Source: an uncultured Spirochaetota bacterium
Lineage (GTDB): Bacteria > Spirochaetota > Spirochaetia > SZUA-6 > Fen-1364
Assembly: GCA_963820525.1 (NCBI GenBank)
Contig: CAWGAA010000001.1
Location: 2,176,001-2,240,000 of the forward strand
DNA length: 64,000 nt
Reading direction: 5' to 3'
Shown: positions 1 to 29,356 of the stretch, piece after piece
How positions within the stretch are numbered: position 1 is the first letter of the stretch
Layout: each line of letters starts with the position of its first letter
The notes under the pieces: generated by a model
Seen by the model: only the letters and a program-made list of their open reading frames with translations
Databases searched by the model: none
What the model was told of the DNA's origin: nothing
Made by a program: the position numbers and the translations under genes

Positions 1-784
1 GGGAGAGCTCGACTATCCTGATGGCCCGCACCGACTTGCCGTAACCGCGGCAACCGTCCTGGGCAAACCTCACAATGCCCTGCGGGGTCACGATAACCCT
101 TCCTCCCGGCCGCGCTATCGAGGAATCCCCCTGGACAATGGGATTTCGCGGGTGGGAAACCCACGGCCCCGGGAGGCTTTCGGCATAGTAGAGCCGAAGC
201 TCGTCGGACTTTCCGGCCTGCACGCTGCTGAACATCCACCACAGGCCGTCGTAACAGAACAGGGAGGTGTCGGCGAACTCACCCTCCAGAAGGTCGGCGA
301 CATGCCGCCAGTCCCTCGGGAAGGCCTGTGCGCTGTAGAGGCGGATTCTGCCTGCCGCGATGCTCTCAGGGACGAGGTAGTGCCGTCCCTCCGCCGAGAA
401 GACATAGGGATAGGAGAGATGGTACGGCTCGGCCAGCACTATTCCCCCATAGTTCCACCGCAAACCGTCGGGGCTCCAGGACATCCCGATCTCTCCCTTT
501 CGGGAGAGTGAGTTCAACACCTCGTAGAACATGTACCATGTGCCGGCGTACCGGACAATGAATGGATCCGCCACGAACCGCGCGGGCACGTCGCGCACGT
601 GGGTCCGGGTGATGACGGGATTGGAGGCCCGCGCATCCGGCGAAAGGCTGTTCGGCGCGTGTCCCGAATAGATTCCGATGGCATACTCCTGCATCGTATC
701 GAAGCTGAGCCGATGCCTGCGCAGGAATAGGAAGCCCGCCACCGCGACGACGGCGATGGCGAGGACGATAAGGGCGTATTTCAT
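1..784 (-). CDS. Membrane-anchored five-bladed beta-propeller protein, GINT1 N-terminal (glucosamine inositolphosphorylceramide transferase-like)/GH43-like; 3' end runs off the window
   Basis: Not in the ORF track. Translated manually from ATG at 784: MKYALIVLAIAVVAVAGFLFLRR..NPVIT..FVADPFIV..WYMFYEV..GEIG..HLSYPYVF..YLVPES..PWVSHPRNPIV..ARPGGRV..RFAQD..YG, open to position 1. Confidence 0.75.
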   Translation of the reverse strand, partial: MKYALIVLAIAVVAVAGFLFLRRHRLSFDTMQEYAIGIYSGHAPNSLSPDARASNPVITRTHVRDVPARFVADPFIVRYAGTWYMFYEVLNSLSRKGEIGMSWSPDGLRWNYGGIVLAEPYHLSYPYVFSAEGRHYLVPESIAAGRIRLYSAQAFPRDWRHVADLLEGEFADTSLFCYDGLWWMFSSVQAGKSDELRLYYAESLPGPWVSHPRNPIVQGDSSIARPGGRVIVTPQGIVRFAQDGCRGYGKSVRAIRIVELS

Positions 785-801: not shown

Positions 802-1953
802 TCAGGCGCTGCGTCTCTCCGCGGCCGACCGCGCTTTCTCCGCGCTCTTTTCCGAGAGCTCCCTGTACATCCGCTCGTGCGCCTGCACGAAGTTCCTGAA
901 ATGGAAACGCTCCTCGACGATCTGCCTGCCCCGCTCCCCCATCAATCGGGCTTTTACCGGGTCGCCGAGAATGGAGATGAGGGCCCCGGCGAGCTTGTTC
1001 GGCTGGAAGGGGGGAACGAGCAGGCCGGTGCGGCCGTCTTCCACCACCTCGGAGATTCCACCCACGTCGGATGCAACCACGGGAAGCCCTGAAGCCATTG
1101 CCTCGACGATCGCAACGCTGAGCCCTTCGGTGCGGGAGGGAAGGACGAAGAGGTCCATCCGGGCAAGCTCGTCGAAAACCTCTTTCCGGTAGCCCGCGAA
1201 CTCCACGGCGTCCGAGAGGCCGATCTTTCGGGCGTACCCCTGCAGACGTCCGGCAAGGGGGCCGTCTCCGACAACGAGAAGGCGCGCCCGGGGGAAGCTC
1301 TCCCGAACCCGCTTCATGGCATCCAGGAGATCAACGTGCCGCTTCTCCTCGCTCAAGCGCGCCACGACGCCGATGACGGGAGCGCCGGGATCCCTTTGCT
1401 CTCGCGATTTGCCCGTCGACTTGGCCCCGCCGAAGGCGGGATAGATGATCCGGTAGGTATCCAGGTTTCTCGCGCCCACCCAATCGCGGCGCACCGCGTC
1501 CGCCACGAACACGCGACAGTCGGCCTTATCGCTCACCCAGTTGTTGAGCGGTTTGAGGAAAGCATCCCGGAATCTTCGCAACCTGCTGGGAGCCTGATTG
1601 CTCGTCGTGAGCTCGCAGGAGATGACCGCCGGCACGCCCGCGCGCCGGGCGGCGATTCCGCCGTAGATGTTGGTGTTCAGGCAGTAGGTCTGGACGATAT
1701 CCGGCGCGAGCCTGCCGAACAGGCTCGCGAGCTTCCCGATGAGGGCGGGGTTCTGCCAGCCCTCGGTATCCAGGTAGTACATGGGTATGTCGAGGCTGTC
1801 GAACTGATCGCTGATCTCGGCGGAGCGGTGCCCGTAGATGCAGACGCTCATGGCGAACCGGCTTCTGTCGATGGTGCGCGCCAGCGTGAGAAGATTGTCG
1901 TGGATCCCGTGAAACAGCCGCACGTCCTTCCAGACGTGCAGAACCTTGATCAT
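802..1953 (-). CDS. Glycosyltransferase family 4 (GT-B)
   Basis: Motifs ARLSEEKRH, FVLPSRTEGLSVAIVEAMASGLPVVASDVGG (EX7E). Confidence 0.92.
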   Translation of the reverse strand: MIKVLHVWKDVRLFHGIHDNLLTLARTIDRSRFAMSVCIYGHRSAEISDQFDSLDIPMYYLDTEGWQNPALIGKLASLFGRLAPDIVQTYCLNTNIYGGIAARRAGVPAVISCELTTSNQAPSRLRRFRDAFLKPLNNWVSDKADCRVFVADAVRRDWVGARNLDTYRIIYPAFGGAKSTGKSREQRDPGAPVIGVVARLSEEKRHVDLLDAMKRVRESFPRARLLVVGDGPLAGRLQGYARKIGLSDAVEFAGYRKEVFDELARMDLFVLPSRTEGLSVAIVEAMASGLPVVASDVGGISEVVEDGRTGLLVPPFQPNKLAGALISILGDPVKARLMGERGRQIVEERFHFRNFVQAHERMYRELSEKSAEKARSAAERRSA

Positions 1954-1966: not shown

Positions 1967-2944
1967 TTATTTCGTGCCGAGCCAGCGCGCCGCGTCCTTC
2001 GCGCTGTAGGAGATGATGAGATCGGCCCCGGCGCGCTTGAAGGCCGTCAACGCCTCCAGGGTGATCTCCCTTTCGTCGATGCGTCCCAGGGAGGCCGCCG
2101 CCTTGATCATCGCGTACTCGCCGCTCACGTTGTACACCGCGAGGGGAACGCCGAACGTCCGCTTGGCCCGGGAAACGATGTCGAGATAGAACATGGCGGG
2201 CTTCACCATGACGATGTCGGCCCCTTCCTCGATGTCGAGTGAGATCTCGCGCATCGCCTCCTCCGCGTTGCCGTAGTCCATCTGGTGGGACTTCTTGTCG
2301 CCGAAGCTCACCGCGGATTCGGTTCCATGCTTGAAGAACGGATCGTAGAGCTTGGAGGCGAACTTGGCCGAATAGCCCATCACCGCCGTCTCTGTGAAGC
2401 CGTTCTCGTCCAGGATCGACCTGATGGCCTTCACCTGGCCGTCGAGCATGGCGGCGGGGGCCACGATGTCGGAACCGGCCCGCGCGTGCGAAAGGGCGAC
2501 CTTCCCGAGCAGCTCCACGCTCTTGTCGTTTAGCAGATAGCCGTTGGCAAGGATGCCGCAGTGCCCATGCGGCGTGTATTCGCAGAGGCAGACGTCGGTG
2601 ACAACGACGATCCCCGGCACCTTCTCCCGGATCGTCTCCACGGCCTTCTGCACGATGCCGCCGGGGTCATAGCTTTCGCTCGCCATCTCGTCGCGCTTCT
2701 CGGGAATCCCGAAGAGCAGGACCGAGGGAATGCCCAGGTCCCGGATCTCCTTCACCTCGTCGGCGAGCCGGTCGATGGACAGGTGGTAGTTTCCGGGCAT
2801 CGAGTCGATCTCCTCTTTGACGCCGTATCCGTGGACGACGAACAGGGGGGAGATGAAATCGCGGGGGGCGAGCGACGTCTCGCGGACCATCTCGCGAATC
2901 GCGGGCGTCCGCCGCAGCCTTCTCATGCGCGTGACGGGGAACAT
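1967..2944 (-). CDS. hemB: Porphobilinogen synthase (ALA dehydratase) homologue with divergent substrate-binding motifs
   Basis: Start reassigned to MFPVTRMRRLRR (AAGGAG RBS). Zn motif DVCLCEYTPHGHCG, Schiff-base lysines in YSAKF and MVKPA, YNVSGEYAMIK. Confidence 0.93.
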   Translation of the reverse strand: MFPVTRMRRLRRTPAIREMVRETSLAPRDFISPLFVVHGYGVKEEIDSMPGNYHLSIDRLADEVKEIRDLGIPSVLLFGIPEKRDEMASESYDPGGIVQKAVETIREKVPGIVVVTDVCLCEYTPHGHCGILANGYLLNDKSVELLGKVALSHARAGSDIVAPAAMLDGQVKAIRSILDENGFTETAVMGYSAKFASKLYDPFFKHGTESAVSFGDKKSHQMDYGNAEEAMREISLDIEEGADIVMVKPAMFYLDIVSRAKRTFGVPLAVYNVSGEYAMIKAAASLGRIDEREITLEALTAFKRAGADLIISYSAKDAARWLGTK

Positions 2945-2961
2945 TGTTTTTCTCCTTTTCT

Positions 2962-4572
2962 TCAGGCGCTCTTCGCGCCGGTGCGTGTGATATGGAAGGG
3001 AAGGATCTTGCCGCTTCGCGTCGGAATCGGGTAGTCCCGCTTTATGCGCAGGGTCCGCGCCTGCCCCCACATCTCGGGGCCCGACTGGGTCCACGATTCA
3101 GGGCTGACGGTGGCGGTCTTGAGGAATCGGATGAAGCTCTTTGCGATCTCCTCCTCGTCCACCTCACCGACCCGCGGGCTTACCAGGAGCTTCAGCCGTG
3201 TGAGGCCGCGCGCGTCCTCCTCTTCCAGCAGCTGGTAGTCGGTGCTCTGGCCGCCGTACTTCCGGGGAAGCTCGCGCTCCACGATCCTGATGAAATCGGT
3301 GTCGACGAACGTGACGCCTTCCCCGGTGAGCTTCTCGTAGCTCCTGATATCCGAGATGTGCGTATCGAAGCCGAGCCGGCCGAAGGGGCAGGAGCACTCC
3401 CCGCTCCACAGCTCGCCGTAATCCCCCATGCCGACGTTGAGCAGGATCTTGGGCGCCTCGTAGAGCAGGGAGGTGAAGAGGAAGGAATCCACCTCCGTGT
3501 CGCTGTGCTCCACCCGGAGGCGGTGCGGGATGATCGCCGTGGTGTCCTTGAGGATGTGACAGTGGTCGCTCGAGGGGTAGGGGCTGTCGCATCCCGCCGC
3601 GATCACCCCCGCTTCAGAGATCCCATAGATGGGCACCGCGATCGCCCCGGCGGCCTCTATCTCGGCCTTCTTCTGCTGGGTGAGCGGCTCCCCCGTTACC
3701 AGGAAGCGCGTGCCGTTGATCCTGAGGCCGTTCTCGGCCGCGGCCATGCAGACCCGCACGGCGGAGCTGGCAAAGGTGTAGATGACGCAGCTGGGGTTTT
3801 CCTCCAGCGCGCGGGAAGCCCACAGTGCGATATCGTACGCGTCGTTGAGCCCCACGAACTCGGGCCGCGCGAGGGGCACGCCGCTCAACCTGCTCATCAG
3901 GAAGATGTAGCTCACCCCCAGCCTCTTCTCCCAATTCACCTTCATGTGGCTCTTCTCCACCTGGGAGAACCACTTGCGGGGAGGGTTTCCGATGTGGGCG
4001 AAGCGCAGGGAGGAATTGATCCCCGGCGCGCCGGGGAAGACGGGAAACCAGTTGGCGATGGGAGCCGTGAGGGCGCCGTGGACATTGAGGATGAACGCGT
4101 CATAGAGAGAGCGTTGGGTGAGATAGTCGAAGTCGATGCGGACCCGGGTCCCCGCGCTGCGGGTGGCGCCGCTTCCCACCTCATAGGCCGCGGAGATGAA
4201 GGGGTTGTCGAACGCCTTCTCTTCGAGGCGGAAGCGCAGGCCGTCCCGCACGACCTCGAATTTCCCCTTGAACTCGTCCACGGTGTAGTACACCCCGTCC
4301 TTTCTCAGGGTCTCGAGGGCTCCCTCGATTCCCGCGTGCTCCACCCAATGGGAAATTTCGGTCATGCCGATCTTCTTGGCGGCGAGGAGGGGCAGGTAAG
4401 GACTTTTCGGATAGCCGAAAACTCCCTTCTCCATCAGCCTCAGGAAGTTCTCCTGGCGGCGGGCGATCCGGTCCGTGAACGCCGCCCGCGCCTGCTCCAG
4501 GGCCTGCTCCGGCGTGGTTCGATCCCTCAAATACTTCATGAGGCCGAAAACGAATCTCGAGTACTTGCGCAT
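2962..4572 (-). CDS. PaaK/GH3-like ANL-superfamily adenylate-forming ligase (divergent)
   Basis: P-loop-like GSGATRSAGT, TGEPLT, YGISEAG, GDYG, C-terminal TRSGKI; strong GGAGG RBS. Confidence 0.7.
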   Translation of the reverse strand: MRKYSRFVFGLMKYLRDRTTPEQALEQARAAFTDRIARRQENFLRLMEKGVFGYPKSPYLPLLAAKKIGMTEISHWVEHAGIEGALETLRKDGVYYTVDEFKGKFEVVRDGLRFRLEEKAFDNPFISAAYEVGSGATRSAGTRVRIDFDYLTQRSLYDAFILNVHGALTAPIANWFPVFPGAPGINSSLRFAHIGNPPRKWFSQVEKSHMKVNWEKRLGVSYIFLMSRLSGVPLARPEFVGLNDAYDIALWASRALEENPSCVIYTFASSAVRVCMAAAENGLRINGTRFLVTGEPLTQQKKAEIEAAGAIAVPIYGISEAGVIAAGCDSPYPSSDHCHILKDTTAIIPHRLRVEHSDTEVDSFLFTSLLYEAPKILLNVGMGDYGELWSGECSCPFGRLGFDTHISDIRSYEKLTGEGVTFVDTDFIRIVERELPRKYGGQSTDYQLLEEEDARGLTRLKLLVSPRVGEVDEEEIAKSFIRFLKTATVSPESWTQSGPEMWGQARTLRIKRDYPIPTRSGKILPFHITRTGAKSA

Positions 4573-4639
4573 TTTCCCTTTCCTCCAAAATCGATCCGCA
4601 GCCGCCCGCGGAAGTGCGAGAGTGCCCGGCGGGATCAGC

Positions 4640-5845
4640 CTAGGATCCGAAACGGATGGCGTTGGTGAGCTCGCGGACCTTCTCGATCGTGTTGTGCATG
4701 ATGCGGTTCACGATCGACTTGGTGAGGGACTCCACCATCCCCTTGGCCTCGTCGGGCAGGGCGCTGCCGGTGGCGAAGGATGCGAAGCCCTCCTGGCGGA
4801 CGTTCTCCGCCATGTCCTTCAGGGAAAGGATCACGGGGGCCAGGTCCGCGGCGTCGAGCTTCTTCCAGACGTCCTTCACCCTTTCGCCGATCATCCCCGC
4901 CGCCTTTTCCGCCTCCCTCTCCCGGATCGCCCTGCTCTCTTCCACCACGGCCTTCAGGTCGTCGATGTTGTAGAGGTGCACGCCCGGGATCTCTTTCACC
5001 CCCGGGTCTATCGTGCGGGGCACCGAGATGTCGATTATCATGACGGGCTTGCCGCCCAGCGAATCCGCGATGTCGCTCTTTGAAATCACGTAGCCCGGGG
5101 AGGCGATCGAGCTGATCACGATGTCGGTCTTGGGGATGTACTCCGCCGCCTCGTACAGCATGATGGGGGTCCCCTTGATGCTCTCCGCCAGGCGGACGGC
5201 GCGCTCGAAGGTGCGGTTGGCGACGAACACCTGCTTCACGCCGTTGTCCATGAGGTTTCTCACGGTGAGCTCCGCCATCTCTCCGGCGCCCAGGATCAGT
5301 GCCGTCTTTTCCGCGATCTCTCCCAGCGCCCGCTTCGAGAGGGCGACGGCGGCGTAGCTCACCGAGACGTTGGCGCGCCCGATATCGGTGGAAGAGCGGA
5401 CCTTCTTCACGAGGGCGAATGCCTGGGGGAAGAGGCGCTTGAAAACGGGCCCGACGACTCCTGCTTCCAGCGCGATCCGGTAGGCGTCCTTCACCTGCCC
5501 GAACACCTGGGGCTCCCCCACGATCATCGAATCGATGCCCGCCGCCACCTTGCAGAGGTGCTCCACCGCTTCCTCGTTGGTATGGACGTAGAGCGTATCG
5601 TCAATGCACTCCTTCACGCCGTGGAAATCGCAGAGAAAGGAGGCGAGGGCCGAGGGTTCCGCCCCGTCCAGGACGGCGTACAGCTCGACCCTGTTGCAGG
5701 TGGACAGGATCACGCACTCCGCCACCCCCTGCTGCTCCCTGAGGGCGGAGAGCGCCCGGGGGAGCGCCTCATCCTCGAAGGCGAACCTCTCGCGCAGGTC
5801 CACCGCCGCAGTTTTGCTATTCATTCCCAGTACGGATACGATCAT
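4640..5845 (-). CDS. hemA: Glutamyl-tRNA reductase
   Basis: Start reassigned to MIVSVLGMNSKTA. Catalytic STCNRVE, GIDSMIVGEPQVFGQVK, NADPH motif GAGEMA, VANRT, DISVPR, YNIDDL. Confidence 0.93.
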   Translation of the reverse strand: MIVSVLGMNSKTAAVDLRERFAFEDEALPRALSALREQQGVAECVILSTCNRVELYAVLDGAEPSALASFLCDFHGVKECIDDTLYVHTNEEAVEHLCKVAAGIDSMIVGEPQVFGQVKDAYRIALEAGVVGPVFKRLFPQAFALVKKVRSSTDIGRANVSVSYAAVALSKRALGEIAEKTALILGAGEMAELTVRNLMDNGVKQVFVANRTFERAVRLAESIKGTPIMLYEAAEYIPKTDIVISSIASPGYVISKSDIADSLGGKPVMIIDISVPRTIDPGVKEIPGVHLYNIDDLKAVVEESRAIREREAEKAAGMIGERVKDVWKKLDAADLAPVILSLKDMAENVRQEGFASFATGSALPDEAKGMVESLTKSIVNRIMHNTIEKVRELTNAIRFGS

Positions 5846-8060
5846 GCAGTGCCTCTCTTCGCTCGCCGCTGTCATCGGAGCCGGCCATGGCCAATTCCCT
5901 CCAGAAGCGCGCGACGTCGCGCGGGAGGGCGTTCCAGTACAGCCCCGTGTACCTTTCACGAAGGTAGAAAAGAAAATCCCGGTACCACGTGTGCGGATAT
6001 TCGTCGATTTGCCGTCTCTCCCCGTTCAACAGCATGTAATCGGGGTGGGTATTGAGCAGAGCCATTCCCCCTTTTTCGGCAACCCAGTCCAGCTTCTCCC
6101 GCCAGACCCTGGCATCGTGGTGTTGAAGCACCACGAAGAGCGTGCTGTCCTGCGGCAGGGTGTAGGGCAGCTCGACGTATCCCGAGCTGCCGTTCGCCAC
6201 CCACAGGGGGAAGATCGTTCCGATCCCGTCGGGCTGGGGCTCGAAGGGGTCCGTGTCGAACGTGGAGGCGTCATACTCGATCGCCAGGTCCTTCAGCCAC
6301 TCGAGATTGTGCTGCATGGCGGCGGAGCGGAACCCGACGGCGCCCCACTCCCGGAGATACGCGTTGATCCGCGCGGCCCGGGAGGTGAAAATCCGGCGTG
6401 ACTGGTACAGCTTCCCATCATGCGACAGGTCGTGCACGCCGATCTCGAAGCCCTGAGCCGTCAGCTCGGTGCGCACCCGGGGATCGTCTTCATAGCGTTC
6501 GGGAACGAAGTTGAAGGATGAAACGAATCCGAGCTCCTTCTCCATGGCCGCGACATGCGCGCAGCGCTCCACGCCCCGAAGACCCTCCACGTCGTGCGTG
6601 AGAACGAGCGCGAACTTCTTGCCGTCCGGCCACCCCTTCCAGTGGAGCGGCCGGGATTGGGATCGAGGGTCGATGGGCCACACGATGTCGACATTGCGCG
6701 CGACCCGGCGGGCAAACATGCGGCGAACCGCGATCTGCGCGCTTCGGGGGATGAGGGGCTTCATAAAATAGTAGAATCGGCGCGCCAGCTTCCGCCCGCT
6801 GGATGTGGCGCCTGATTCCCGCTTTTCCAGAAGCCAGTTGTACGCCGTGAGCAGGTTCTCCGACACGATCTCCCAGGCCAGCTCGCGCTCCACCCTGGCA
6901 CATCCCCGCTCACCCATGGTTGAGCGGCACGCGGGATCGTCCATGAGCCTGGCCACGGCCTCCGCGTACTCTTCGACATCATTGGGCTTCACATACAGGG
7001 CGGCATCCCGCGCCGTGAAGCGCGTCTCCTTCAGGTCGAAGCTGACGATCGGCTTGGAGTACATCATGTACTCCATGACCTTGATCCAGGTGGAATGATC
7101 GTTGAGGGGGTTCGAGGGGTTCGGGTCCAGACAGATATCGGCCGCGGCGAGATAGTGAAGGAGCTCCTGCCGTGGAATGAGGCCGGTGAAACGCACCGAC
7201 TCCTCGAGGCGGAGGTCCTTGACCAGCCCCTTCATGTCCTCCAGCACGTCCCCCTGGCCAATGGCGATGCACTGGAAATCCTCCCTGCCCAGCCCGTAGC
7301 GGAGGTGGTGCAGAGCGTGGAGCATGTAGTCCAGCCCGTCCTGCGGGCCCATGGTGCCGATGTACACAAGGAGCTTCCTGCCGCCCATCTGCGGGCCGGG
7401 CTCGCGGGAATCGCGCTGGAACTCGAATCGGGCAGGGCCGTTTCGAACGATGAAGATCTTCTCGGGGCCGATCCCCCCGCGTTCCATCTCGATGGCCCGG
7501 TAGCTCTCGTTGGTGGCGATCACGAGATCCGAGTGGCGGATGACGAGCGCTTCGATGCCATGGAGAATCCTGTAGATGAAGTTGCGGCGCACCCGGTAGC
7601 GGGAGAGGTAGAGCTCGGGCTCCAGATCGTGATGATCGAATATCACCTTCTTGCCCAGGAGCCTATAGCCGAGGGAGAGGAGGCACAGGATGTTGGGGGG
7701 ATTCGATGAATGGATGACCTGGAACCCGTCGCGCACGGCCACCATGGGGAAGATGAACAGGCACACCAGGGCGAAATAGAAGTACTCCACGATGTAGCCG
7801 AACGCGGAGAGGGCCCGATAGAAGAGCACCCCCAGCCGGGAGGTGCTTCGCGTGCTCTTCTTGAACAGGTTGATCATGGGCATTGTATAGACGGTGATGC
7901 CCCGAACGACTTCCCTTCCCAGGTTCCCGTGGGGGCTCAAGGCAAGGACGCTCACCTTGTACCCGTTGTCGGCGAGCTTGAACGCCTCCTTGCTCACCCG
8001 CGGGTCCGCGAGGAACGGCTTGTCCACGAACATCAGGACTTTTCGCGAACTCTTTTTCAT
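5817..8060 (-). CDS. GT4 glycosyltransferase fused to a C-terminal polysaccharide deacetylase-like (NodB/CE4-like) domain
   Basis: N-terminal DPRVSKEA, FDHHDLEPE, IKVMEYM (GT4); C-terminal VLTHDVE, EIGVHDLSHDG, GFRS, YDAS, ELPYTLPQD, NTHPDY. Confidence 0.85.
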   Translation of the reverse strand: MKKSSRKVLMFVDKPFLADPRVSKEAFKLADNGYKVSVLALSPHGNLGREVVRGITVYTMPMINLFKKSTRSTSRLGVLFYRALSAFGYIVEYFYFALVCLFIFPMVAVRDGFQVIHSSNPPNILCLLSLGYRLLGKKVIFDHHDLEPELYLSRYRVRRNFIYRILHGIEALVIRHSDLVIATNESYRAIEMERGGIGPEKIFIVRNGPARFEFQRDSREPGPQMGGRKLLVYIGTMGPQDGLDYMLHALHHLRYGLGREDFQCIAIGQGDVLEDMKGLVKDLRLEESVRFTGLIPRQELLHYLAAADICLDPNPSNPLNDHSTWIKVMEYMMYSKPIVSFDLKETRFTARDAALYVKPNDVEEYAEAVARLMDDPACRSTMGERGCARVERELAWEIVSENLLTAYNWLLEKRESGATSSGRKLARRFYYFMKPLIPRSAQIAVRRMFARRVARNVDIVWPIDPRSQSRPLHWKGWPDGKKFALVLTHDVEGLRGVERCAHVAAMEKELGFVSSFNFVPERYEDDPRVRTELTAQGFEIGVHDLSHDGKLYQSRRIFTSRAARINAYLREWGAVGFRSAAMQHNLEWLKDLAIEYDASTFDTDPFEPQPDGIGTIFPLWVANGSSGYVELPYTLPQDSTLFVVLQHHDARVWREKLDWVAEKGGMALLNTHPDYMLLNGERRQIDEYPHTWYRDFLFYLRERYTGLYWNALPRDVARFWRELAMAGSDDSGERREALHDRIRTGNE

Positions 8061-8067
8061 GTCACCA

Positions 8068-9375
8068 TCACCAGCAGATTCCGTCGTAGCGGGTCGGCAT
8101 GACCTGCTCGAACCGCGGCGCGCTCACGAGGTCCACCACGCGCACATGGCCGTTGACGCCGGCGAGCACCTCCTCGGGATTTTTCGTCTTGCTCCCCAGA
8201 ACGATCACCTCGGACTCCTTCAGCGTCTCCGCCAGAGATTCGCGCAGGAGCTGCGAAATGTGGGGGATCACCTTCTCGATATAGCGTTTGTTGGACCCAT
8301 GGAGGCGGGAATAGGAGACCTCCTCGTCGAAGACGGAAACCTCGTACCCCTTGCCCAAGAGCTTTTCGATCAAGTCGACCATGGGGCTCTCCCGCAGGTC
8401 GTCGGTCCCCGCCTTGAAGGAAAGCCCGATGATCCCCACCTTCTTCTTGCGGGTCTTCTTGATGAGCTCGAAGGCCCTCTCCACCTGCAGGTGGTTGCTG
8501 GGCAGGACGGCCGACAGCAGGGGGGTCTCAACGTCGAGCTCCCGCGCCTTGTGCACGATTGCCCGCAGGTCCTTGGGAAGGCACGAGCCGCCGAAGGCGA
8601 AGCCGGGCTTCAGGTACGTGGGGGAAATGTTGAGCTTCCTGTCCTGGCAGACCAGATCCATGACCTCGCGGCTGTCGACGCCGGCCGCCTTGCAGAGCGT
8701 GCCGACCTCATTGGCGAAGGTCACCTTCAGGGCGTGGAACGCGTTGGAGACGAACTTCACCGTCTCGGCGCTTTTCAGCCCCGCGCGGAGCACCGGGGCC
8801 TTGACGGCGCGGTAGAGGCGCGCCACGACGTCCCCGCTCTTTCCGTCGAGCTGGCCGATGACGGTGAAGGGAGGATCGTAGAAATCCACCACGGAGGTCC
8901 CTTCCCTGAGGAACTCGGGGTTCATGCAAACGCCGAAATCGACTCCCCGCCGCTTTCCCGAGTGCTTTTCCAGGAGGGGGATCAGCACGCCTTCCACGGT
9001 GCCGGGGAGCACCGTGCTCCTCACGTTCACCACGTGGTAATGGCGGCTTGTCGCGAGGAACTCTCCCAGCTGCTGTATCACTTTCTTGACGAACGTCAGG
9101 TTCTGGCTTCCGTTGTCGTTGCTGGGCGTGCCGACGCAGATCAGGGAGACGTCCGCCTCCACGATCGAGTTCCTGCTCGCCGTGAGCCTGCCGGAAGAGA
9201 CCGCTTCCTTCAGCTTCTCCTCGAGGCCCGGCTCCCGGATGGGGCTCTTGCCGGCGTTGATCATGTCGACCTTCAGAGGGTCCACGTCGTAGCCGTGGAC
9301 CGTGTGTCCGTCGCACGCCAGGCACGCCGCCGAAACACAGCCGACGTACCCCAGCCCGAAAATATTGACCTTCAT
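8068..9375 (-). CDS. UDP-glucose/GDP-mannose 6-dehydrogenase (AlgD-like)
   Basis: Start MKVNIFGLGYVG; ICVGTPS, NPEFLREG, FGGSCLPKD, GLSFKAGTDDLRESP, C-terminal GICW. Confidence 0.92.
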   Translation of the reverse strand: MKVNIFGLGYVGCVSAACLACDGHTVHGYDVDPLKVDMINAGKSPIREPGLEEKLKEAVSSGRLTASRNSIVEADVSLICVGTPSNDNGSQNLTFVKKVIQQLGEFLATSRHYHVVNVRSTVLPGTVEGVLIPLLEKHSGKRRGVDFGVCMNPEFLREGTSVVDFYDPPFTVIGQLDGKSGDVVARLYRAVKAPVLRAGLKSAETVKFVSNAFHALKVTFANEVGTLCKAAGVDSREVMDLVCQDRKLNISPTYLKPGFAFGGSCLPKDLRAIVHKARELDVETPLLSAVLPSNHLQVERAFELIKKTRKKKVGIIGLSFKAGTDDLRESPMVDLIEKLLGKGYEVSVFDEEVSYSRLHGSNKRYIEKVIPHISQLLRESLAETLKESEVIVLGSKTKNPEEVLAGVNGHVRVVDLVSAPRFEQVMPTRYDGICW

Positions 9376-9377
9376 CT

Positions 9378-10553
9378 TCACTCCTCCCCAAACCGTGAAA
9401 TGAGAATGTCCGCGATCCTGACAGCCGCCTTCCCGTCCCAATAGGGCGGGGCCGGGGGGGCTTCGACCATCCCCCGGGCCAGCTGGGAGATCGCGGCCGC
9501 GACGATCGGCTCCCTGCCGGTCCCCGCGATCACGTTCGTGCCGCGGCTCACCGTCACGGGGCGCTCCGTGGAATCCCGCAGCGTTACGCACGGGACCCTC
9601 AATACCGTCGTCTCTTCCTGGATCCCGCCGGAATCCGTGAGAACCACCCGCGCGGCCGACATGAGCTTCAGGAAATCCAGGTAGCCCAGCGGCTCGATGG
9701 CATGAATTCCCTCGAGGCATTCCGCGCCGCCGGAGGAGAGATCTCCCCAGCCGAGGAGCCGCTGCAGGCCGAAGGCTTCGATGCGGGCCCGCGTGCGGGG
9801 GTGTATGGGAAACACGATGGGAAGCTCCCGCGCCACCTGGGCCAGGGCTTCGAGGATCCCGCACAGCGCCTCCGCGTCATCCACCGACTCCGCGCGGTGG
9901 AGCGTGAGAACCCCGTAGGGGCAGGGCGCCGAGCCGTTTCGGGCGAGCCCGAGTTGGTGGAGGATCCGCGAGCCCTGCGCCTTCTGCCGATGCGCCAGGA
10001 GCGTGTCGATCATGACGTTTCCCACGAAGTGGATCTTCTCCTCGGCGACGCCCTCACGCCGGAGATTTTCACCGGCGCTCTCCTCCGTGGTGAAGAGGCA
10101 GTCGGAGATGGCGTCGGTGAGGATCCTGTTGATCTCCTCCGGCATCCTGCGGTCGAAGCTTCGAAGTCCCGCCTCGACGTGAACGACGGAGATGCCCATC
10201 TTCACGGCGACAAGCGCGCAGGCAATGGTCGAGTTGACGTCGCCCACCACCAGGACGTGCGTGGGACGCTCCGAAAGGCAAACCTCCTCGAAGCGCTTCA
10301 TGATCTCGGCCGTCTGCGCCGCATGAGAGCCGGAGCCGACGTCGAGGTTGACGTCGGGCTCGGGAAGGCCGAGCTGCTCGAAGAACAGCTCGCTCATCCG
10401 CCTGTCGTAATGCTGGCCCGTGTGAACCAGGATCTGCTCGATTCCTTGTCGGCCCAGCTTCCGCTCCTGTTCTGAAGCCGCGTGCAGGGCCTCCATGATG
10501 GGCCCGATCTTCATGAAGTTCGGCCGCGCGCCCACGACGTTCACGATCTTCAT
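9378..10553 (-). CDS. wecB: UDP-N-acetylglucosamine 2-epimerase (non-hydrolysing; WecB/WbpI family)
   Basis: Start MKIVNVVGARPNFMK; HTGQHYD, HVEAGLRS, PEEINR, TDSGGIQEE, TERP. Confidence 0.93.
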   Translation of the reverse strand: MKIVNVVGARPNFMKIGPIMEALHAASEQERKLGRQGIEQILVHTGQHYDRRMSELFFEQLGLPEPDVNLDVGSGSHAAQTAEIMKRFEEVCLSERPTHVLVVGDVNSTIACALVAVKMGISVVHVEAGLRSFDRRMPEEINRILTDAISDCLFTTEESAGENLRREGVAEEKIHFVGNVMIDTLLAHRQKAQGSRILHQLGLARNGSAPCPYGVLTLHRAESVDDAEALCGILEALAQVARELPIVFPIHPRTRARIEAFGLQRLLGWGDLSSGGAECLEGIHAIEPLGYLDFLKLMSAARVVLTDSGGIQEETTVLRVPCVTLRDSTERPVTVSRGTNVIAGTGREPIVAAAISQLARGMVEAPPAPPYWDGKAAVRIADILISRFGEE

Positions 10554-12475
10554 CTGACGGCGGCCCCCACCGGCCGGCTCGATGCGCCGACCCGGTGCCC
10601 CCGGATGAAGGCATCGTGCCAGAGCTCGAAGGTGAGCAGGGCAAAGAGGATCCGCTTGTTGTCCTCCTGCAGGGCCGCGTGCGAATCGAGCATCTCGTTG
10701 ACCGTGGCGATGTTGAAATAGGTCCGGCATGCCGAATCCGCGGCATTGAGGCGCTCCCGCAGGCTGTCTTTCAGATCGCCGTGAAACCATTCGTCCAGAG
10801 GGGTTCGAAAACCGATCTTTTCGCGCCCGATCACTTCCGGGGGGACCCAGCGGGGGGATACGGCCTTCTTCAACGCGTATTTCTGGGTCAGGCCGCGGAT
10901 CTTGAGCTTCTGGGGGATGCTTTCCACGAACTCCATGAGCTCCAGGTCGAGGAAGGGAACGCGCGCTTCCAGGGATACGGCCATGGACATCTTGTCCCCG
11001 TAGAGAAGGAGGTTGTCCGCAAGCGATGTACGCGCGTCCACGTAGAGCATCCTGTTCAGCGCATCGCAAGGCCCGGCCTCCCTATACCAGGAACCGATGC
11101 ATTCCCGCATCGCCCTGTCATCCGAAGGGCGAAGCCCATCCCGGAAAATCCTGTCCTTGAGCCGTGCGTCGATGACGCCGTACACCTTGATGAGCCTCTC
11201 CAGGGGGTCCATCGTCCCCAGGGATCGGACGGCCCGTTTGAGCTTCTCGTTGCGGGGCAGCCGTTCAGCCAGGGGCGTGATGAGGTGCGTGCGAAGCAGG
11301 GAAGGGATGGCGCGGTAATAGGGTCCGTATCTCTCTCCCATGTGGCGGGAGTAACCGGCGAAGGGCTCGTCCGCCCCCTGGCCGGTGAGAACCACCTTCA
11401 CGCTTTCACGCGCGAGAGCGCACACGCTGTAGTAGGCAAGCGTGGATCCCGTGGCCACGGGCTCTTCCAGGTACTCGATGGAAAGCGGCAGGAAGTCCGC
11501 GTAGGTGGCCGACGAAACCCTCACCTCGTGGTGATTGCTCCCGATTCTCCGGGAAGCCTCCCGGGCGTATTCGAGCTCGTTCCATTTGAAATCGTCCTCG
11601 AAGCCGACGGTGAACGTCTCTATCGGCCCGCCCGACGCCTCGGTCATGATGGCCGCGACGGTGCTGGAGTCCACCCCGCCGCTGAGCATTGCGCCGATGG
11701 GAACATCGGAGACCATCTGGCGCTTCACGGAAGCGGAGACGAGCTCTGAAAGCCTTTCGACGACGTCGCGCTCAGACCAGCGGGAAAGCGGCTCCGGCGC
11801 CGGGCGGGAGAACCGCACCGTCTTCACCCCGGAAGGCGAGCATACCAGCGCATGGCCGGGGAGAAGCTTCTTGATTCCGGAAAACACTGTGCGCGGCGAC
11901 GGCACGTAGCCCAGCGACACGTACTGGTCAAGCGCTTCGCGGTCCACCGCCGGAGTAACATCGGGGCTGCAGAGGATGGTCCTGAGCTCCGAGCCGAAGA
12001 GGAGCGTCGCGCCGTCGTCGCGGTAGTACAGGGGCTTTACGCCGAAGGGATCGCGGGCCAGCACGAGGGTATGGAGGCGCTGGTCCCAGATGGCCAGCCC
12101 GAACATGCCGTTCAGGCGGGCAAGCCCCTCAAGCCCCCACTGCTCGTACGCGTGGATGATCGTCTCGGTGTCCGACGCGGTGGCGAAGGCGTGCCCATGC
12201 GAGGCGAGCTCCCGCCGCAGGTCCTGGAAGTTGTAGATCTCGCCGTTGAAAACCAGCCAGATCCTGCCGTCTTCATTGCACATGGGCTGATGCCCGCCGG
12301 CGAGGTCGATGATGGACAGCCGTCTCACCCCCAGGCCGATCCCTTCGGAGTCGTCCGCGTACAGTCCCTCGTCGTCCGGTCCTCTATGGGCGATGGAGCG
12401 CGTCATCCGCGCCAACAGGTCCCGATCAAAGGGGTGCCGCTCGCGGTAATGGAACCCTCCCGTTACGCCGCACAT
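10550..12475 (-). CDS. asnB: Asparagine synthase (glutamine-hydrolysing) family amidotransferase
   Basis: N-terminal MCG, HRGPD, RRLSIID, FNGEIYNF, LSGGVDSS, VLTGQGADE, EARVPFLD. Confidence 0.93.
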   Translation of the reverse strand: MCGVTGGFHYRERHPFDRDLLARMTRSIAHRGPDDEGLYADDSEGIGLGVRRLSIIDLAGGHQPMCNEDGRIWLVFNGEIYNFQDLRRELASHGHAFATASDTETIIHAYEQWGLEGLARLNGMFGLAIWDQRLHTLVLARDPFGVKPLYYRDDGATLLFGSELRTILCSPDVTPAVDREALDQYVSLGYVPSPRTVFSGIKKLLPGHALVCSPSGVKTVRFSRPAPEPLSRWSERDVVERLSELVSASVKRQMVSDVPIGAMLSGGVDSSTVAAIMTEASGGPIETFTVGFEDDFKWNELEYAREASRRIGSNHHEVRVSSATYADFLPLSIEYLEEPVATGSTLAYYSVCALARESVKVVLTGQGADEPFAGYSRHMGERYGPYYRAIPSLLRTHLITPLAERLPRNEKLKRAVRSLGTMDPLERLIKVYGVIDARLKDRIFRDGLRPSDDRAMRECIGSWYREAGPCDALNRMLYVDARTSLADNLLLYGDKMSMAVSLEARVPFLDLELMEFVESIPQKLKIRGLTQKYALKKAVSPRWVPPEVIGREKIGFRTPLDEWFHGDLKDSLRERLNAADSACRTYFNIATVNEMLDSHAALQEDNKRILFALLTFELWHDAFIRGHRVGASSRPVGAAVR

Positions 12476-12479: not shown

Positions 12480-13718
12480 TTACCTCCCCGCCGCCGCCAT
12501 GGGATGGGGCTGAACGCGCTCGCCGGCTTCTCTGAGCAGCCACAGGGTCAGGCTCCTGAAGGTCTGCGACTGCGCCCAGCGGTGGTATGGCACCTTGTTC
12601 CAGCCCACGACCATTTTCCTGGTCAGGAAAGAACCGTCCGGCTTCTGCCAGCGCGAAAGAAGATCGTCGCCAACCGCCTCAATGATCTCGCGGCACCGTG
12701 GGTAGCGGTCTTCCAGCAGGAAGCAGAGGTTGAGGCACTCCGCGTAGTCGTAGAGCTCCCGCGTATGGAGCGTCATGCGGGGAGCAACCGCGAAGGGAAT
12801 GGGAAGAGAGCTCCTGTCCAGCAGGTGCGAGGTGTAGAACGCGAAACCCTTGTCGATGGCCTGCGAGCAGGAAGAGCCGCCGGTCAGCCGCTCGATCTTC
12901 GCCAGGCTCTTCAGAACGAAGCAGGTATGGAAGTTGTCGACGAAGGTCTCCGAGCCGTCCGCCGCGTAGCACCAGGAGCCGTCGGGATTCTGGCTTGCGA
13001 CGACGAAATCGACGTACTTCCGGGCGGCCGCGACGTAGTCTTCGCGGCTGAAGCGGTACCCCGCATCGGTGAGGAGAAACGCCCTGTAGGCAGTGGCGTT
13101 GACCACGTGGGAGTGGTCCTCATCGCGGGTGGTGTAGGAGCTTGCAATGCCGAGGGGGGGCAGGGGATTGTCGTGAAGGTCGCGGAAGGCGTGATCCGCT
13201 ATGGAGCGCATGATCCGAAGCTTTTCCTCGTCCCCGTCCAGCTCGTAGCCGGCGGCGAACGCCTCGTAGACGTACGGTGTCGTGGTGATGAGCGGGGTCT
13301 GGGCGGGGACGGTCCCCTTGGTCCCGACCCAATCGAAGGGATATCCCCAGCAGTAATTCCGTTCGCCGGGGCAGCGCATCCTCTTCAGCGCTTCCAGGTA
13401 GATCACACCGCGCTGGCGGTACACCTCCGCCCCCGTGGCTCGATACAGGTTGAAGAAACCCATCGCGTAATGCGCGTCGGCTATGGGAAAGCGGGATTTG
13501 CCGCGGAACAGCGCCCGGGTTGCCGGCAGGAACGAATCCAGAAGGACGAAAGGGGCAACCGCCGCGATCCCCCAGCGGTGCGCGTAGTACAGCGCCTTCG
13601 CCCTGCCGCCTCCGGAAGAAGCCCACAGATCGTACTGGTCCTGGGAAACCTCCCCGAACGAGTCGAGCCAGAGGATGAACCGGCTGATGGAGGAACGAAG
13701 CGAATCATGCGTATCCAT
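12480..13718 (-). CDS. Conserved polysaccharide-locus protein with predicted (alpha/alpha)6 toroid fold
   Basis: CWGYPFDW, QNPDGSWCY, VDNFHT and QKPDGSF repeats resembling prenyltransferase/squalene-cyclase-type repeats; overlaps the upstream gene. Confidence 0.6.
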   Translation of the reverse strand: MDTHDSLRSSISRFILWLDSFGEVSQDQYDLWASSGGGRAKALYYAHRWGIAAVAPFVLLDSFLPATRALFRGKSRFPIADAHYAMGFFNLYRATGAEVYRQRGVIYLEALKRMRCPGERNYCWGYPFDWVGTKGTVPAQTPLITTTPYVYEAFAAGYELDGDEEKLRIMRSIADHAFRDLHDNPLPPLGIASSYTTRDEDHSHVVNATAYRAFLLTDAGYRFSREDYVAAARKYVDFVVASQNPDGSWCYAADGSETFVDNFHTCFVLKSLAKIERLTGGSSCSQAIDKGFAFYTSHLLDRSSLPIPFAVAPRMTLHTRELYDYAECLNLCFLLEDRYPRCREIIEAVGDDLLSRWQKPDGSFLTRKMVVGWNKVPYHRWAQSQTFRSLTLWLLREAGERVQPHPMAAAGR

Positions 13719-14652
13719 GCTCTTTTTCTCCTATTGCGATGTGAAAGAATTTCTCGCGCGCCCGGGACATGGTCAGAAACTCGACGTCGGCGCGCGCGCG
13801 AAGCGCCCCGATCCGGCGGGCCAGGAGCCGCGCCGCCCCCTCATCGACGCGAGCCGCCTCGTTTGCGCCGCTACGCGGATCGAGAAGCTCGTCGATGTGG
13901 AAGAAGTACGTGAGAAAGGCGGGCGCCGCCATGAAGGCCGCCTTGGAAAGGGTTGCCGCGTGGAGCGCCGAGTACACGGCGCCATTGCCTTCCAGGACGC
14001 TCGCGTAGATGGGGAACTCGATGATGCGCGAGCCTCCCCGCTTCTCGACATCCTCGGGATCCGGAAAATAGGGCGCCAGGGGCGGGCCGAACAGCCTGCC
14101 GGCTACCGAGCCGAGCCGAGCCATTGCGTGTTTCCTGCGCGCGCCCCCTCCGGAGGCGGAGACCCTGTTCGCCGCGCCCCACAGCGTGGAGGAGTCGGAG
14201 GTGAAGCCGAGCTCTTCGAGGATCGCGGGAAGCCCTCCGACATGGAGAAGGGCGCCGCTCCTGAAGCTCGCCGGCCGCGCGCCGCATTCGGCCAGCTTGT
14301 CGGCCCCGTCGGAGATCTGGGCGCGGACCCATTCCCTGTCTTTGGTCTCGTAGCCAAGCCTTCCATCCGCCCCGGTCCTCCGCCAGTGAACGTGAAGCCC
14401 GATTTCGTCGCGGGGGCGCGCGGCGAGCCGCGCCACGACCTCGGGAAACAATCGGGGGAGGTCCCTCTCCCGCTCGCGGCTCGCTTCCACGAACCAGGAG
14501 CAGGGGATTCCCTGCTGCTGGAGAAACTGTTCTAGAAGGGGCGTTGCCTTGAGCACGCCGCCGTAATCCCTTGCCGTGCCGTTTCCGTGGTCCCAGGGGC
14601 CGTGGTTCGGCTCCCAATCCACGGAAAATATGACAAAGAGCTTCTCATGCAT
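13705..14652 (-). CDS. Polysaccharide deacetylase-like protein (WalW-like)
   Basis: Start MHEKLFVIFSVDWE (TGATG overlap); SWFVE, EIGLHVH, SFRSG, SDSS, YFFHIDE. Confidence 0.7.
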   Translation of the reverse strand: MHEKLFVIFSVDWEPNHGPWDHGNGTARDYGGVLKATPLLEQFLQQQGIPCSWFVEASRERERDLPRLFPEVVARLAARPRDEIGLHVHWRRTGADGRLGYETKDREWVRAQISDGADKLAECGARPASFRSGALLHVGGLPAILEELGFTSDSSTLWGAANRVSASGGGARRKHAMARLGSVAGRLFGPPLAPYFPDPEDVEKRGGSRIIEFPIYASVLEGNGAVYSALHAATLSKAAFMAAPAFLTYFFHIDELLDPRSGANEAARVDEGAARLLARRIGALRARADVEFLTMSRAREKFFHIAIGEKEHGYA

Positions 14653-19455: not shown

Positions 19456-19520
19456 ATGTTTGTCGTTCCTTGGAGGCCCGTCAGGATCGGGCCTTTGCGA
19501 TCGGTTTGTTTTTTTCAAGA

Positions 19521-19560
19521 TTTTCCGCGGGGGCAGGCGAACGCCGGCTCCCGTGGAAAA
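19521..19560 (-). repeat. Inverted repeat/stem-loop just downstream of the beta-helix gene (mRNA-stabilising hairpin or weak terminator)
   Basis: TTTTCC...GGAAAA arms enclosing a GGCG-TT-CGCC inner hairpin; no U-tract on the minus strand. Confidence 0.45.
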
Positions 19561-19567
19561 GGGATAT

Positions 19568-21139: not shown

Positions 21140-21176
21140 GGCACACCCCTTTCGCGGAAAGCCGTGAAAGAATTTA

Positions 21177-21192
21177 AGCATGAGATGTGCCA
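21177..21192 (-). promoter_or_regulatory. Sigma54 (-24/-12) promoter for the beta-helix gene
   Basis: Minus strand TGGCAC-ATCTC-ATGCT, one mismatch to TGGCAC-N5-TTGCW, about 38 nt upstream of the ATG. Confidence 0.75.
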
Positions 21193-21346
21193 AGATCCAA
21201 TCAGCGCCATCTTTCGAATATCCATTGTCCACTATTTCCTTTTATTGTTGAAAAATAAAGCGCCCTGCAAAAAATGTCTCGAGCCTGCCCGCTTCGCCTG
21301 GGCTTCTGCACCCTCGCTCGCCGATTACATCCCTGTACTCGTTATG

Positions 21347-21362
21347 TGTAAGCGCGATTACA
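21347..21362. promoter_or_regulatory. Putative enhancer-binding-protein upstream activating sequence (TGT-N10-ACA palindrome)
   Basis: TGTAAGCGCGATTACA about 155 nt upstream of the -24 box; a second CGATTACA half-site near 21322; AT-rich spacer in between. Confidence 0.55.
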
Positions 21363-21396
21363 CGGACGTAACTCAGGGGCGGTGCAGCGGCCCGCC

Positions 21397-26630: not shown

Positions 26631-26636
26631 TGACGA

Positions 26637-29354: not shown

Positions 29355-29356
29355 GA

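Follow-up and report, generated by a model that had tools for sequence, protein, structure and literature searches.

A HemB paralog, a predicted PaaK-type ligase of an unnamed family, and a short UbiD form a conserved cassette found within a polysaccharide operon of an uncultured spirochete

Porphobilinogen synthase (PBGS, HemB) is treated as a single-purpose enzyme that performs the second step of all tetrapyrrole synthesis. Here, we describe a gene cassette of an uncultured Spirochaetota bacterium in which a distinct clade of this enzyme, HemB2, is kept with a short UbiD-like (de)carboxylase and a ligase of an unnamed family, which we call X. The cassette lies in a polysaccharide operon near one end of a 64,000-nucleotide stretch of DNA (the window; contig CAWGAA010000001.1, 2,176,001–2,240,000) and extends into the 18 kb examined to its left (contig 2158001–2176000). 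X, HemB2, and the short UbiD are its universal core. On balance, we judge it probable that the cassette encodes a self-supplied pathway from 5-aminolevulinate (ALA) to a monopyrrole, the product of which X ligates to an acceptor, here probably an amino sugar of the polysaccharide. The cassette points to an undescribed use of pyrrole chemistry, in this genome apparently the decoration of a surface sugar polymer.

Results

Layout of the cassette

The cassette genes are listed below. Flank positions become window positions on subtraction of 18000, which places those genes beyond window base 1.

1967..2944, minus strand: HemB2, PBGS paralog of the X-linked clade (PF00490, E 5e-137, 456.7 bits)
2962..4572, minus strand: X, predicted PaaK-family adenylate-forming ligase of an unnamed family, 536 amino acids (aa) (fold and PDB profile match)
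4640..5845, minus strand: HemA, glutamyl-tRNA reductase (TIGR01035, 383 bits)
flank 16715–17764, minus strand: short UbiD-like (de)carboxylase, 349 aa (PF01977 and PF20695)
flank about 16089–16700, minus strand: UbiX flavin prenyltransferase (NF004685, 241 bits against a cut-off of 188)
flank 14822–16117, minus strand: hemL (TIGR00713, 610.6 bits against a cut-off of 527.3)

A first-pass annotation of the window had placed hemA, a ligase, and hemB between a GT4-deacetylase fusion and a GT4 glycosyltransferase. Family matches and the DNA itself confirm this order, with all of these genes on the minus strand. The open reading frame (ORF) of hemA (4640–5959) scores 383 bits against TIGR01035, for which the cut-off is 209.55. 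The gene starts at the ATG at 5845 and thereby shares 29 nt with the upstream gene, whose stop is at 5817; the annotation had seen this overlap. Between hemA and X there are 67 nt. The hemB ORF (1967–3094; NF006762, 463 bits against a cut-off of 297) starts at the ATG at 2944, 17 nt from the stop of X (2962) across a gap that contains AAAGGAG. Its stop at 1967 is followed after 13 nt by the ATG of the next GT4 (1953), so that both gaps around hemB are below 20 nt, again as reported.

The operon continues to the left of the window with the GT4, a GINT1_N-like gene, the short UbiD, UbiX, and hemL, all on the same strand. The earlier remark that no hemL occurs in the window is thus literally true and misleading, as hemL lies 1.9 kb past the left edge, on the same strand, and closes the same operon. 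The short UbiD and UbiX, also outside the window, were missed with it; the UbiD gene belongs to the conserved core and alters the chemistry that one would expect.

The cassette is linked across phyla

One genome per species was scanned with an alignment of 21 X orthologs (A1), which yielded 106 relatives, and 80 loci were kept. X in these loci is 59%–71% identical to the X of the window. Their titles name Acidobacteriota (the most; mainly Terriglobia), Fibrobacterota/Chitinispirillia, Spirochaetota, Verrucomicrobia, and Aminicenantes, with single bins labeled Dormiibacterota, Dongiaceae, and Actinomycetes. Neighbors were called by tblastn with the window proteins, and a short UbiD was counted at 40% identity or more on the same strand.

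hemB follows X directly and on the same strand in 73 of the 74 loci with at least 1100 nt downstream (median offset 45 nt), an arrangement that is far beyond chance. A short UbiD homolog lies downstream of X in 61 of the 65 loci with at least 5 kb after X. hemA is present in 39 of the 80 loci, upstream of X in 16, as in the window, and after hemB in 23. Less constant companions are the GT4 next to hemB (GT4a, 22 loci), the C-terminal domain of the GT4 fusion (19), GINT1_N (16), UbiX (12), and hemL (9). The glycan-type companions, namely the NodB-like domain of the fusion, GT4a, and GINT1_N, occur with the cassette in several phyla.

A Pfam scan of three loci reveals two layouts. The sugar-operon layout, found in a Spirochaetota-labeled and a Fibrobacteres-labeled locus, starts with DUF354, WecB, a stand-alone homolog of the fusion C-terminal domain, hemA, in some cases hemL, X, and hemB. 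After hemB come a GT4, in some cases an FAD amine-oxidase-like gene, the short UbiD, GINT1_N, UbiX, and a hexapeptide acyltransferase, which follows UbiX in 12 loci. The other layout is a bare triad on an Acidobacteriaceae chromosome (L072, 3667–13813), where X, hemB, and UbiD stand alone directly after iscS, an hscB-like DnaJ-domain gene, hscA, and a 2Fe-2S ferredoxin gene, all on the same strand. Beside this adjacency to Fe-S genes, we note that human ALAD is reported to be able to carry an Fe-S cluster (PMC7725820).

The source genome lacks the remainder of the tetrapyrrole pathway

The source assembly comprises 5.05 Mb in 4 contigs and is 96.67% complete. DNA of the stretch occurs in wetland, sediment, and soil metagenomes, and a look-up of RNA data sets gave no match to it. 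Genome-wide model searches find a single hemA, a single hemB, and a single hemL above its cut-off, all inside the cassette operon. Neither of two hemC models (TIGR00212, PF01379) detects a match in this genome, nor do those for hemD (PF02602), ferrochelatase (PF00762), and cobA, the uroporphyrin-III methyltransferase (TIGR01469). The best match to hemE reaches 53 bits against a cut-off of 302.95, and none is above it. Control genomes gave matches in every one of these searches. To judge by its gene content, the source genome has no tetrapyrrole synthesis. The hemA, hemB, and hemL of the cassette are not genes of housekeeping heme synthesis, and an annotation that reads these three as “heme synthesis present” is wrong for such genomes.

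Of 34 relatives in its family or order, 22 carry hemB as well as hemC and the other 12 neither of the two; hemB without hemC is seen in the source genome alone. X is carried by one of 60 relatives (63% identity, three in-frame stops), and a 40% identical paralog by another, so the cassette is patchy within its own lineage. In that carrier, the lone family relative with the cassette (L068, 295–3826), X is interrupted in frame by two TGA codons and one TAG codon, both hemA and hemB are broken into two parts, and the short UbiD is absent downstream, as in a decaying copy or through assembly errors.

HemB2 is separate from housekeeping HemB

The hem genes were searched in 50 of the 80 carrier genomes. 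hemC is found in 44 of them, all with at least two hemB matches, and where positions were compared by coordinates, one hemB lies within a few kb of hemC and hemA (e.g., G037 and G008). The six carriers without hemC have exactly one hemB each. This copy is X-linked in the three genomes checked by coordinates (G001, G012, and G049) and lies on another contig in G019. The same six have a single hemA in five cases and none in one. Each single absence is weak, as the bins come without completeness figures; the full agreement of three gene counts is not.

A maximum-likelihood tree of HemB (IQ-TREE, LG+C20+F+G4; 92 rows, 360 columns) holds 72 X-linked sequences, the window's included, and 20 second, non-X-linked copies from the same genomes, several of them seen beside hemC. 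X-linked matches with fewer than 300 aligned residues were left out, as were canonical copies beyond 20 of roughly 44. The X-linked HemBs split from the non-X-linked copies along a branch of length 0.8, with support of 100/100 and presence in all 200 bootstrap trees, and HemB2 does not group with the second copies of the same genomes. The annotation's separation of the cassette from housekeeping heme synthesis is supported. Of the three observations it had named in advance as contrary, one is made, in that these are the only hemA and hemB of the genome; HemB2 does not join the housekeeping HemBs, and the gene arrangement is conserved elsewhere.

Three Fibrobacterota-labeled genomes (G007, G017, and G040; loci L021, L033, and L069) have their hemC match in a 661–756-aa frame, where it covers only model positions 1–217, and the tree places the canonical HemBs beside it on very long branches. 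The pattern resembles a housekeeping hem cluster that is fused or divergent in an unusual way.

HemB2 is a member of the PBGS family, above curated cut-offs and with 354 bits to the solved PBGS 1w1z. The X-linked set keeps the Zn motif DVCxCEYTxxGHCG and both lysine motifs, SAKF and MVKPA. About 12 fixed differences distinguish it from canonical copies, including changes of PSDMMDG to PAAMLDG, PF-RDA to PFFKxGT (one extra residue), and GDRxxYQ to GDKxxHQ. Mapped by motif onto the human sequence, the changed motifs presumably lie at or adjoin Arg209 and Arg221 of human ALAD. Substrate-contacting residues of that enzyme include Arg209 and Arg221 (PMC9631992), where A-side and P-side ALA are as defined in PMC7725820. 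The fixed changes suggest an altered substrate. HemB2 as a self-resistance copy against an ALA-like PBGS inhibitor was considered and rejected, being pointless in genomes that have no tetrapyrrole pathway.

Taken by themselves, a sole hemA, hemB, and hemL in a genome with neither hemC nor hemD would fit ordinary heme or tetrapyrrole synthesis, with housekeeping genes and with X, the short UbiD, or both in place of hemC and hemD. We consider this very improbable. A normal hemC and a second hemB accompany X in 44 of the 50 carriers, on which ground the replacement of hemC or hemD by X or the short UbiD was rejected, and hemE, ferrochelatase, and cobA are missing from the source genome as well. 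In addition, X has the fold of a ligase, and UbiD chemistry is unrelated to pyrrole polymerization.

X is a predicted PaaK-type ligase from a large unnamed family

X has no Pfam match even at E 10 and no NCBIfam match at 1e-3, and thus none to PF00501 or to PaaK/CapK models. The best 119 other database clusters are 63%–80% identical to it over the whole length; those with names are hypothetical proteins, and none carries a Pfam domain. A Chitinispirillum alkaliphilum protein, CHISP_0391, is among the best 120 matches. The A1 alignment has a mean column identity of 74% and contains the invariant blocks VTGEPL, YGISEAG, GMGDYG, SYEKLTGEGVTFVD, and PxxTxSGKILPF, along with conserved Cys and His residues. 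GEP, YGISEAG, GMGDYG, and SGK (K522) are invariant in all 21 sequences. The core motifs of ANL enzymes are the P-loop, YGxTE, GD, and the C-terminal catalytic Lys; in X, the region of the first reads SGATRSAGT.

Searched against the PDB, the A1 profile has one match below E 0.001, to 9s3l_A (deposited as a phenylacetate-CoA ligase; E 2.5e-4), which spans the invariant blocks and the Cys/His cluster. The AlphaFold model of X (pLDDT 75.2, pTM 0.74) has 242 PDB matches at E ≤ 1e-3 in Foldseek, and the top matches are all PaaK-family ligases (best E 7e-13; TM up to 0.51/0.61), among them BT_0428 (4r1m), PaaK1 and PaaK2 (2y27 and 2y4o), ClxA, NatL2, AjiA1, and a 2-hydroxyisobutyryl-CoA ligase. Beyond its own unnamed clusters, the language-model neighbors of X belong to GH3, AMP-binding, or CapK_C families (scores 0.93–0.94). 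The description of X as a divergent adenylate-forming ligase in the first-pass annotation is in line with the profile match (E 2.5e-4) and the PaaK-family fold (E about 1e-12), and the model predicts that X is a PaaK-type adenylate-forming enzyme of an unnamed family. A 574-aa ORF that runs antisense to X (2944–4668, plus strand) is longer than X itself and is most likely an artifact of the 63% G+C content.

The X orthologs form one cluster (881 bits) when 1.84 billion representatives are searched, and paralogs of about 530 aa follow from 564 bits down. At E ≤ 1e-3, this paralog family counts 2232 representative clusters, of which 787 remain at E ≤ 1e-30. None of 16 sampled paralogs (444–538 aa) has a Pfam match; a 17th, P0230 (857 aa), is fused to an NMT1/THI5-like solute-binding domain. 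Their gene neighborhoods were taken from 80 metagenome loci, obtained by a scan with a six-row alignment and with the ORFs clustered. The next gene on the same strand encodes a solute-binding protein in 21 of the 56 loci with at least 1.1 kb of flank (9 NMT1-like, 9 TctC, and 3 TAXI-TRAP) and hemB in 4 of the 56, the remainder being mixed or unclustered. One locus (L169) has three pairs of ligase and NMT1-like binding protein in tandem. In a relative of the source genome, the genes after the paralog encode a binding protein of this kind, the ATPase and permease of an ABC transporter, a GT4, and, past a sulfotransferase, another two GT4s. Near some paralogs there are also genes for GT2, GT4, Wzx, UDP-sugar dehydrogenase, and methyltransferases, each family in few of the 80 loci.

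TctC and TRAP binding proteins bind carboxylates. The binding-protein neighbors and the fusion suggest that this family pairs a ligase with the supplier of a small organic acid, and HemB2 occupies the position that the binding protein holds in the paralog loci. Instead of taking part in uptake, the binding proteins may pass substrates on to the ligases. The cassette is a first functional handle on this large family of ∼530-aa ligases, which has no database name.

The short UbiD and the proposed chemistry

The short UbiD scores 190 bits against PF01977 and 202.7 bits against TIGR00148, below the cut-off of 244.85, with model positions 1–315 of 438 matched. Its alignments to E. coli UbiD, HmfF, and PA0254 have E values of about 1e-37. 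The source genome has no further UbiD-family gene and no further UbiX, so that this UbiX can serve no other UbiD there. Residues N145, R150, H168, E209, D253, and D258 are invariant or nearly so in 11 homologs and align with conserved positions of UbiD and HmfF; we take them to be ligands of the metal and of prenylated flavin mononucleotide (prFMN) and acidic and Arg catalytic residues. The C-terminal oligomerization domain is replaced in the 11 aligned homologs by a conserved 40-residue tail, DFHGS..R..VQN..LK..FR.FQ..GR. According to PMC7976604, PA0254 (HudA) decarboxylates pyrrole-2-carboxylate and carboxylates pyrrole at 0.5–1 M bicarbonate, and its C-terminal oligomerization domain closes the active site.

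From the gene content, the missing remainder of the tetrapyrrole pathway, the linkage across phyla, the HemB clade, and the predicted folds of X and the deacetylase, we infer the following series of reactions. HemA and HemL would convert glutamyl-tRNA to ALA, and HemB2 would convert ALA to a porphobilinogen-type monopyrrole. The short UbiD, with prenylated flavin from UbiX, would then add a carboxyl group to the pyrrole ring or remove one. X would activate a carboxylate of the resulting pyrrole acid with ATP and transfer it to an acceptor. In the source genome, this acceptor would most likely be an amino sugar in the polymer that the surrounding operon makes, deacetylated to a free amine by the NodB-like domain fused to the neighboring GT4. 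HemA and HemL as a supply of ALA would explain why hemA and hemL are carried in genomes that have no C5 pathway for heme and are frequently omitted where housekeeping copies exist. A monopyrrole-acid unit ligated onto a glycan, as the first-pass annotation had proposed, is the best reading of these data.

The same annotation had drawn an analogy to moenomycin, and this part of it does not fit. On that model, the ligase would activate ALA, giving the C5N unit 2-amino-3-hydroxycyclopent-2-enone for attachment to the glycan, and genes for ALA supply do stand beside an adenylate-forming ligase in a glycan locus. We find it scarcely credible, as the strictly linked partner of X is a PBGS with intact catalytic motifs, followed by the UbiD/UbiX pair, ALA would come via the C5 route, and neither an ALA synthase nor an amide synthetase is seen in Pfam scans of the locus.

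The surrounding operon and the acceptor

The other features of the operon and its surroundings are as follows.

1..784, minus strand, continuing past the left window edge: GINT1_N-like beta-propeller protein, 318 aa in total (PF24793, E 1.3e-49)
802..1953, minus strand: GT4 glycosyltransferase GT4a (PF00534/PF13692, E about 1e-40)
5817..8060, minus strand: GT4 fused to a NodB-like predicted deacetylase, 747 aa, the deacetylase domain at about 5817–6800 (GT4 Pfam match at residues 28–403; C-terminal model)
8068..12475, minus strand: UDP-sugar dehydrogenase-like, WecB 2-epimerase, and AsnB-like amidotransferase genes (TIGR03026, 386 bits; TIGR00236, 310 bits; TIGR03108, 553 bits, below the cut-off of 816.9)
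12480..34430, minus strand: remainder of the Wzx-type polysaccharide cluster (Pfam scans)
22848–24275, minus strand: Wzx flippase (Pfam scan)
33147–34430, minus strand: initiating sugar transferase (Pfam scan)
39547–41316, opposite strand to the polysaccharide operon: Wza-like export gene (family scans)

Pfam, PF01522 included, gives no match to the last 327 aa of the GT4 fusion. The model of this domain (pLDDT 80.8) matches NodB-type deacetylases (3rxz, E 1.7e-10, TM 0.60/0.67; also 1z7a, 3s6o, and PdaC), and its language-model neighbors are NodB-type. THDVE, HDLxHDG, and HPDY, which we take to resemble NodB motifs, are invariant in 10 homologs. The GT4-deacetylase fusion of the first-pass annotation thus stands at the level of fold, by which this domain is a predicted NodB-fold deacetylase. 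Homologs of it occur elsewhere in five of five minimal-layout Acidobacteriaceae genomes, as a 760–812-aa open frame in four and a 489-aa frame in G020; in G014, a stop interrupts the copy.

For the source genome, the acceptor suggested by the linked deacetylase and GT4 is a de-N-acetylated amino sugar of the polymer. The polarity could also be the reverse, with X adenylating a uronic acid of the glycan or of a nucleotide sugar and coupling it to the pyrrole aminomethyl group or to the amine of ALA, which would give a uronamide rather than an N-acyl sugar. The UDP-sugar dehydrogenase-like enzymes and WecB of the operon lead us to expect uronic acids in the polymer, and porphobilinogen has a free amine. 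Bacterial glycans are known in which uronic acids carry amide-linked amino compounds. Even so, this polarity seems distinctly unlikely to us: it would leave the linked deacetylase without a role, X, HemB2, and UbiD occur in Acidobacteriaceae without sugar genes, and the pairing of paralogs with carboxylate-binding TctC and TAXI-TRAP proteins argues for a small acid as the activated partner.

The product may instead be a free small molecule, such as a cofactor, pigment, signal, or a small glycoside resembling mycothiol or bacillithiol, in which case the polysaccharide-operon placement would be secondary. The universal core holds only X, HemB2, and the short UbiD, and many Acidobacteriaceae have no adjacent glycan gene. 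The 59%–71% identity of X across 80 loci despite their differing phylum labels would suit a fixed small-molecule substrate, and GT4a has sub-threshold NCBIfam matches to BshA and MshA, to which the hexapeptide acyltransferase after UbiX in 12 loci may be added. Set against these points, the operons that house the cassette in the source genome and in loci of Fibrobacterota, Spirochaetota, and Verrucomicrobiota also encode a flippase, an initiating transferase, an export protein, and several glycosyltransferases, and paralogous ligases, too, lie amid GT2, GT4, and Wzx genes. We regard a free small molecule as unlikely.

The remainder of the cluster (12480..34430) contains two ORFs of no known family, GT4s, a heparinase II/III-like protein, a beta-helix protein, a PGA_cap-like protein, a TPR protein, and a GFO oxidoreductase. 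The two ORFs (12480–13718, 412 aa, and 13705–15159, 484 aa; both minus strand) have no Pfam or NCBIfam match; weak homologs of the 412-aa protein (21%–27% identity) lie upstream of the cassette in nine Fibrobacterota loci. The heparinase II/III-like protein (15815–17902, minus strand) and a nearby GH5 glycosidase (41320–43203, minus strand) may trim or process the polymer.

Convergent with hemL, at flank 12359–14790 on the plus strand (contig 2170359–2172790), are an ATP-grasp-like gene (425 aa) and an FAD/NAD(P) oxidoreductase gene (491 aa), the latter resembling Lys/Orn N-monooxygenases. In four Acidobacteriaceae loci (L050, L051, L053, and L061), homologs of the two (48%–56% and 39%–44% identity, respectively) are present at 3–7 kb upstream of X, and they may be further tailoring enzymes of the cassette pathway.

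Discussion

Several observations weigh against a monopyrrole acid that X attaches to a glycan, and the case for it is made from genomic evidence and predicted structures, that is, at the level of genes. Most comparison genomes are metagenome bins without completeness figures. The linkage has exceptions: the single hemB of one genome is on another contig (L035), and four loci do not have the short UbiD as counted (L035, L043, L047, and L068), with a UbiD of just 30%–32% identity on the opposite strand in L043 and L047 and none in L068. At least 30 Acidobacteriaceae loci have the core triad without adjacent glycan genes, which leaves glycan decoration unproven as a general role, and the fusion-domain homologs of Acidobacteriaceae lie 20 kb to megabases from the cassette. 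The P-loop region of X, SGATRSAGT, differs from the motif that is usual in ligases, and X is recognized by none of the family models. The GDK variant of HemB2 (Arg to Lys) also occurs in the genuine PBGS 1w1z, so its active-site differences need not mean a new substrate.

The UbiD step raises further difficulties. Porphobilinogen has no ring carboxyl and hence offers no obvious substrate to a decarboxylase, and pyrrole carboxylation by the known enzyme needs 0.5–1 M bicarbonate (PMC7976604). The short UbiD also has no counterpart of the C-terminal domain with which solved UbiDs close their active site and scores below the TIGR00148 cut-off, and it may work differently or not at all.

The missing ring carboxyl would be supplied if HemB2 were a Knorr-type hetero-condensing pyrrole synthase. 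Such an enzyme would join ALA to another keto acid, for example zinc-held 2-oxoglutarate, and the ring-carboxylated pyrrole tricarboxylate thus formed would be decarboxylated by the short UbiD and ligated by X to surface sugars. The ring carboxyl from hetero-condensation would be a natural substrate for UbiD, and the fixed changes of HemB2 are concentrated in segments where human ALAD has active-site residues (as given in PMC9631992). We offer this as a speculation that is probably wrong in this form. If true, it would add to ALA metabolism a monopyrrole branch that has so far been unknown and that is widespread in Fibrobacterota and in the Acidobacteriota of soil.

For the ALA-to-monopyrrole pathway that we favor, the main significance lies in a distinct PBGS clade being kept with an unnamed ligase and a short UbiD in at least five phyla, also in genomes that appear unable to make tetrapyrroles. 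A second, non-tetrapyrrole fate of ALA and porphobilinogen becomes directly testable, and for abundant bacteria of soils and sediments the pathway predicts either a novel substituent of surface polysaccharides or a novel small metabolite. Searches of open-access papers turned up no description of a hemB paralog with a PaaK-like ligase and UbiD, nor of porphobilinogen-derived non-tetrapyrroles, hemA, hemB, or hemL in exopolysaccharide loci, or pyrrole-acyl glycans. We know of no non-tetrapyrrole pathway built on porphobilinogen synthase.

Comparison with known systems

Each of the core proteins resembles a known enzyme and departs from it. HemB2 shares its family score and catalytic motifs with the porphobilinogen synthase of tetrapyrrole synthesis. 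In contrast to the latter, it forms a separate clade, has X rather than hemC as its partner, and also occurs where a genome has no hemC. X is like the PaaK-family ligases (2y27/2y4o, 4r1m, NatL2 6siw, AjiA1 6wuq, and ClxA 9s45), several of which activate aromatic acids, in its predicted fold (E about 1e-12 to 1e-7) and in the GEP, YGxSE, GD, and C-terminal SGK motifs, and its Cys/His cluster aligns with that of ClxA. Compared with these structures, X is ∼100 residues longer, with an extra helical N terminus, an unusual P-loop region, and about 14% identity. The short UbiD has the PF01977 domain of HudA/PA0254 and other prFMN-dependent UbiDs and a UbiX encoded beside it, but it is about 350 aa long and ends in the conserved tail instead of the oligomerization domain.

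As a system, the cassette recalls three others. In anaerobic benzene and naphthalene activation, a UbiD-like carboxylase acts with UbiX and a CoA ligase, such that an aromatic ring is carboxylated and the acid is then trapped by an ATP-dependent ligase. These are catabolic systems for hydrocarbons, with carboxylases that are full-length and multi-subunit, whereas the cassette would be biosynthetic and make its own pyrrole. The pathway to the C5N unit of moenomycin, asukamycin, and ECO-02301 likewise diverts ALA from heme and uses an adenylate-forming ligase for attachment to a larger molecule; it differs in having an ALA synthase and an amide synthetase but no PBGS and no UbiD, and it yields a cyclopentenone rather than a pyrrole. 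Mycothiol and bacillithiol are assembled by a GT4, a deacetylase, an ATP-dependent ligase, and an acetyltransferase, and the same order of enzyme types is found in the Fibrobacterota and Spirochaetota loci. Here, in contrast, the ligase belongs to an unrelated family, there is no cysteine chemistry, and the genes reside in a Wzx-type polymer cluster.

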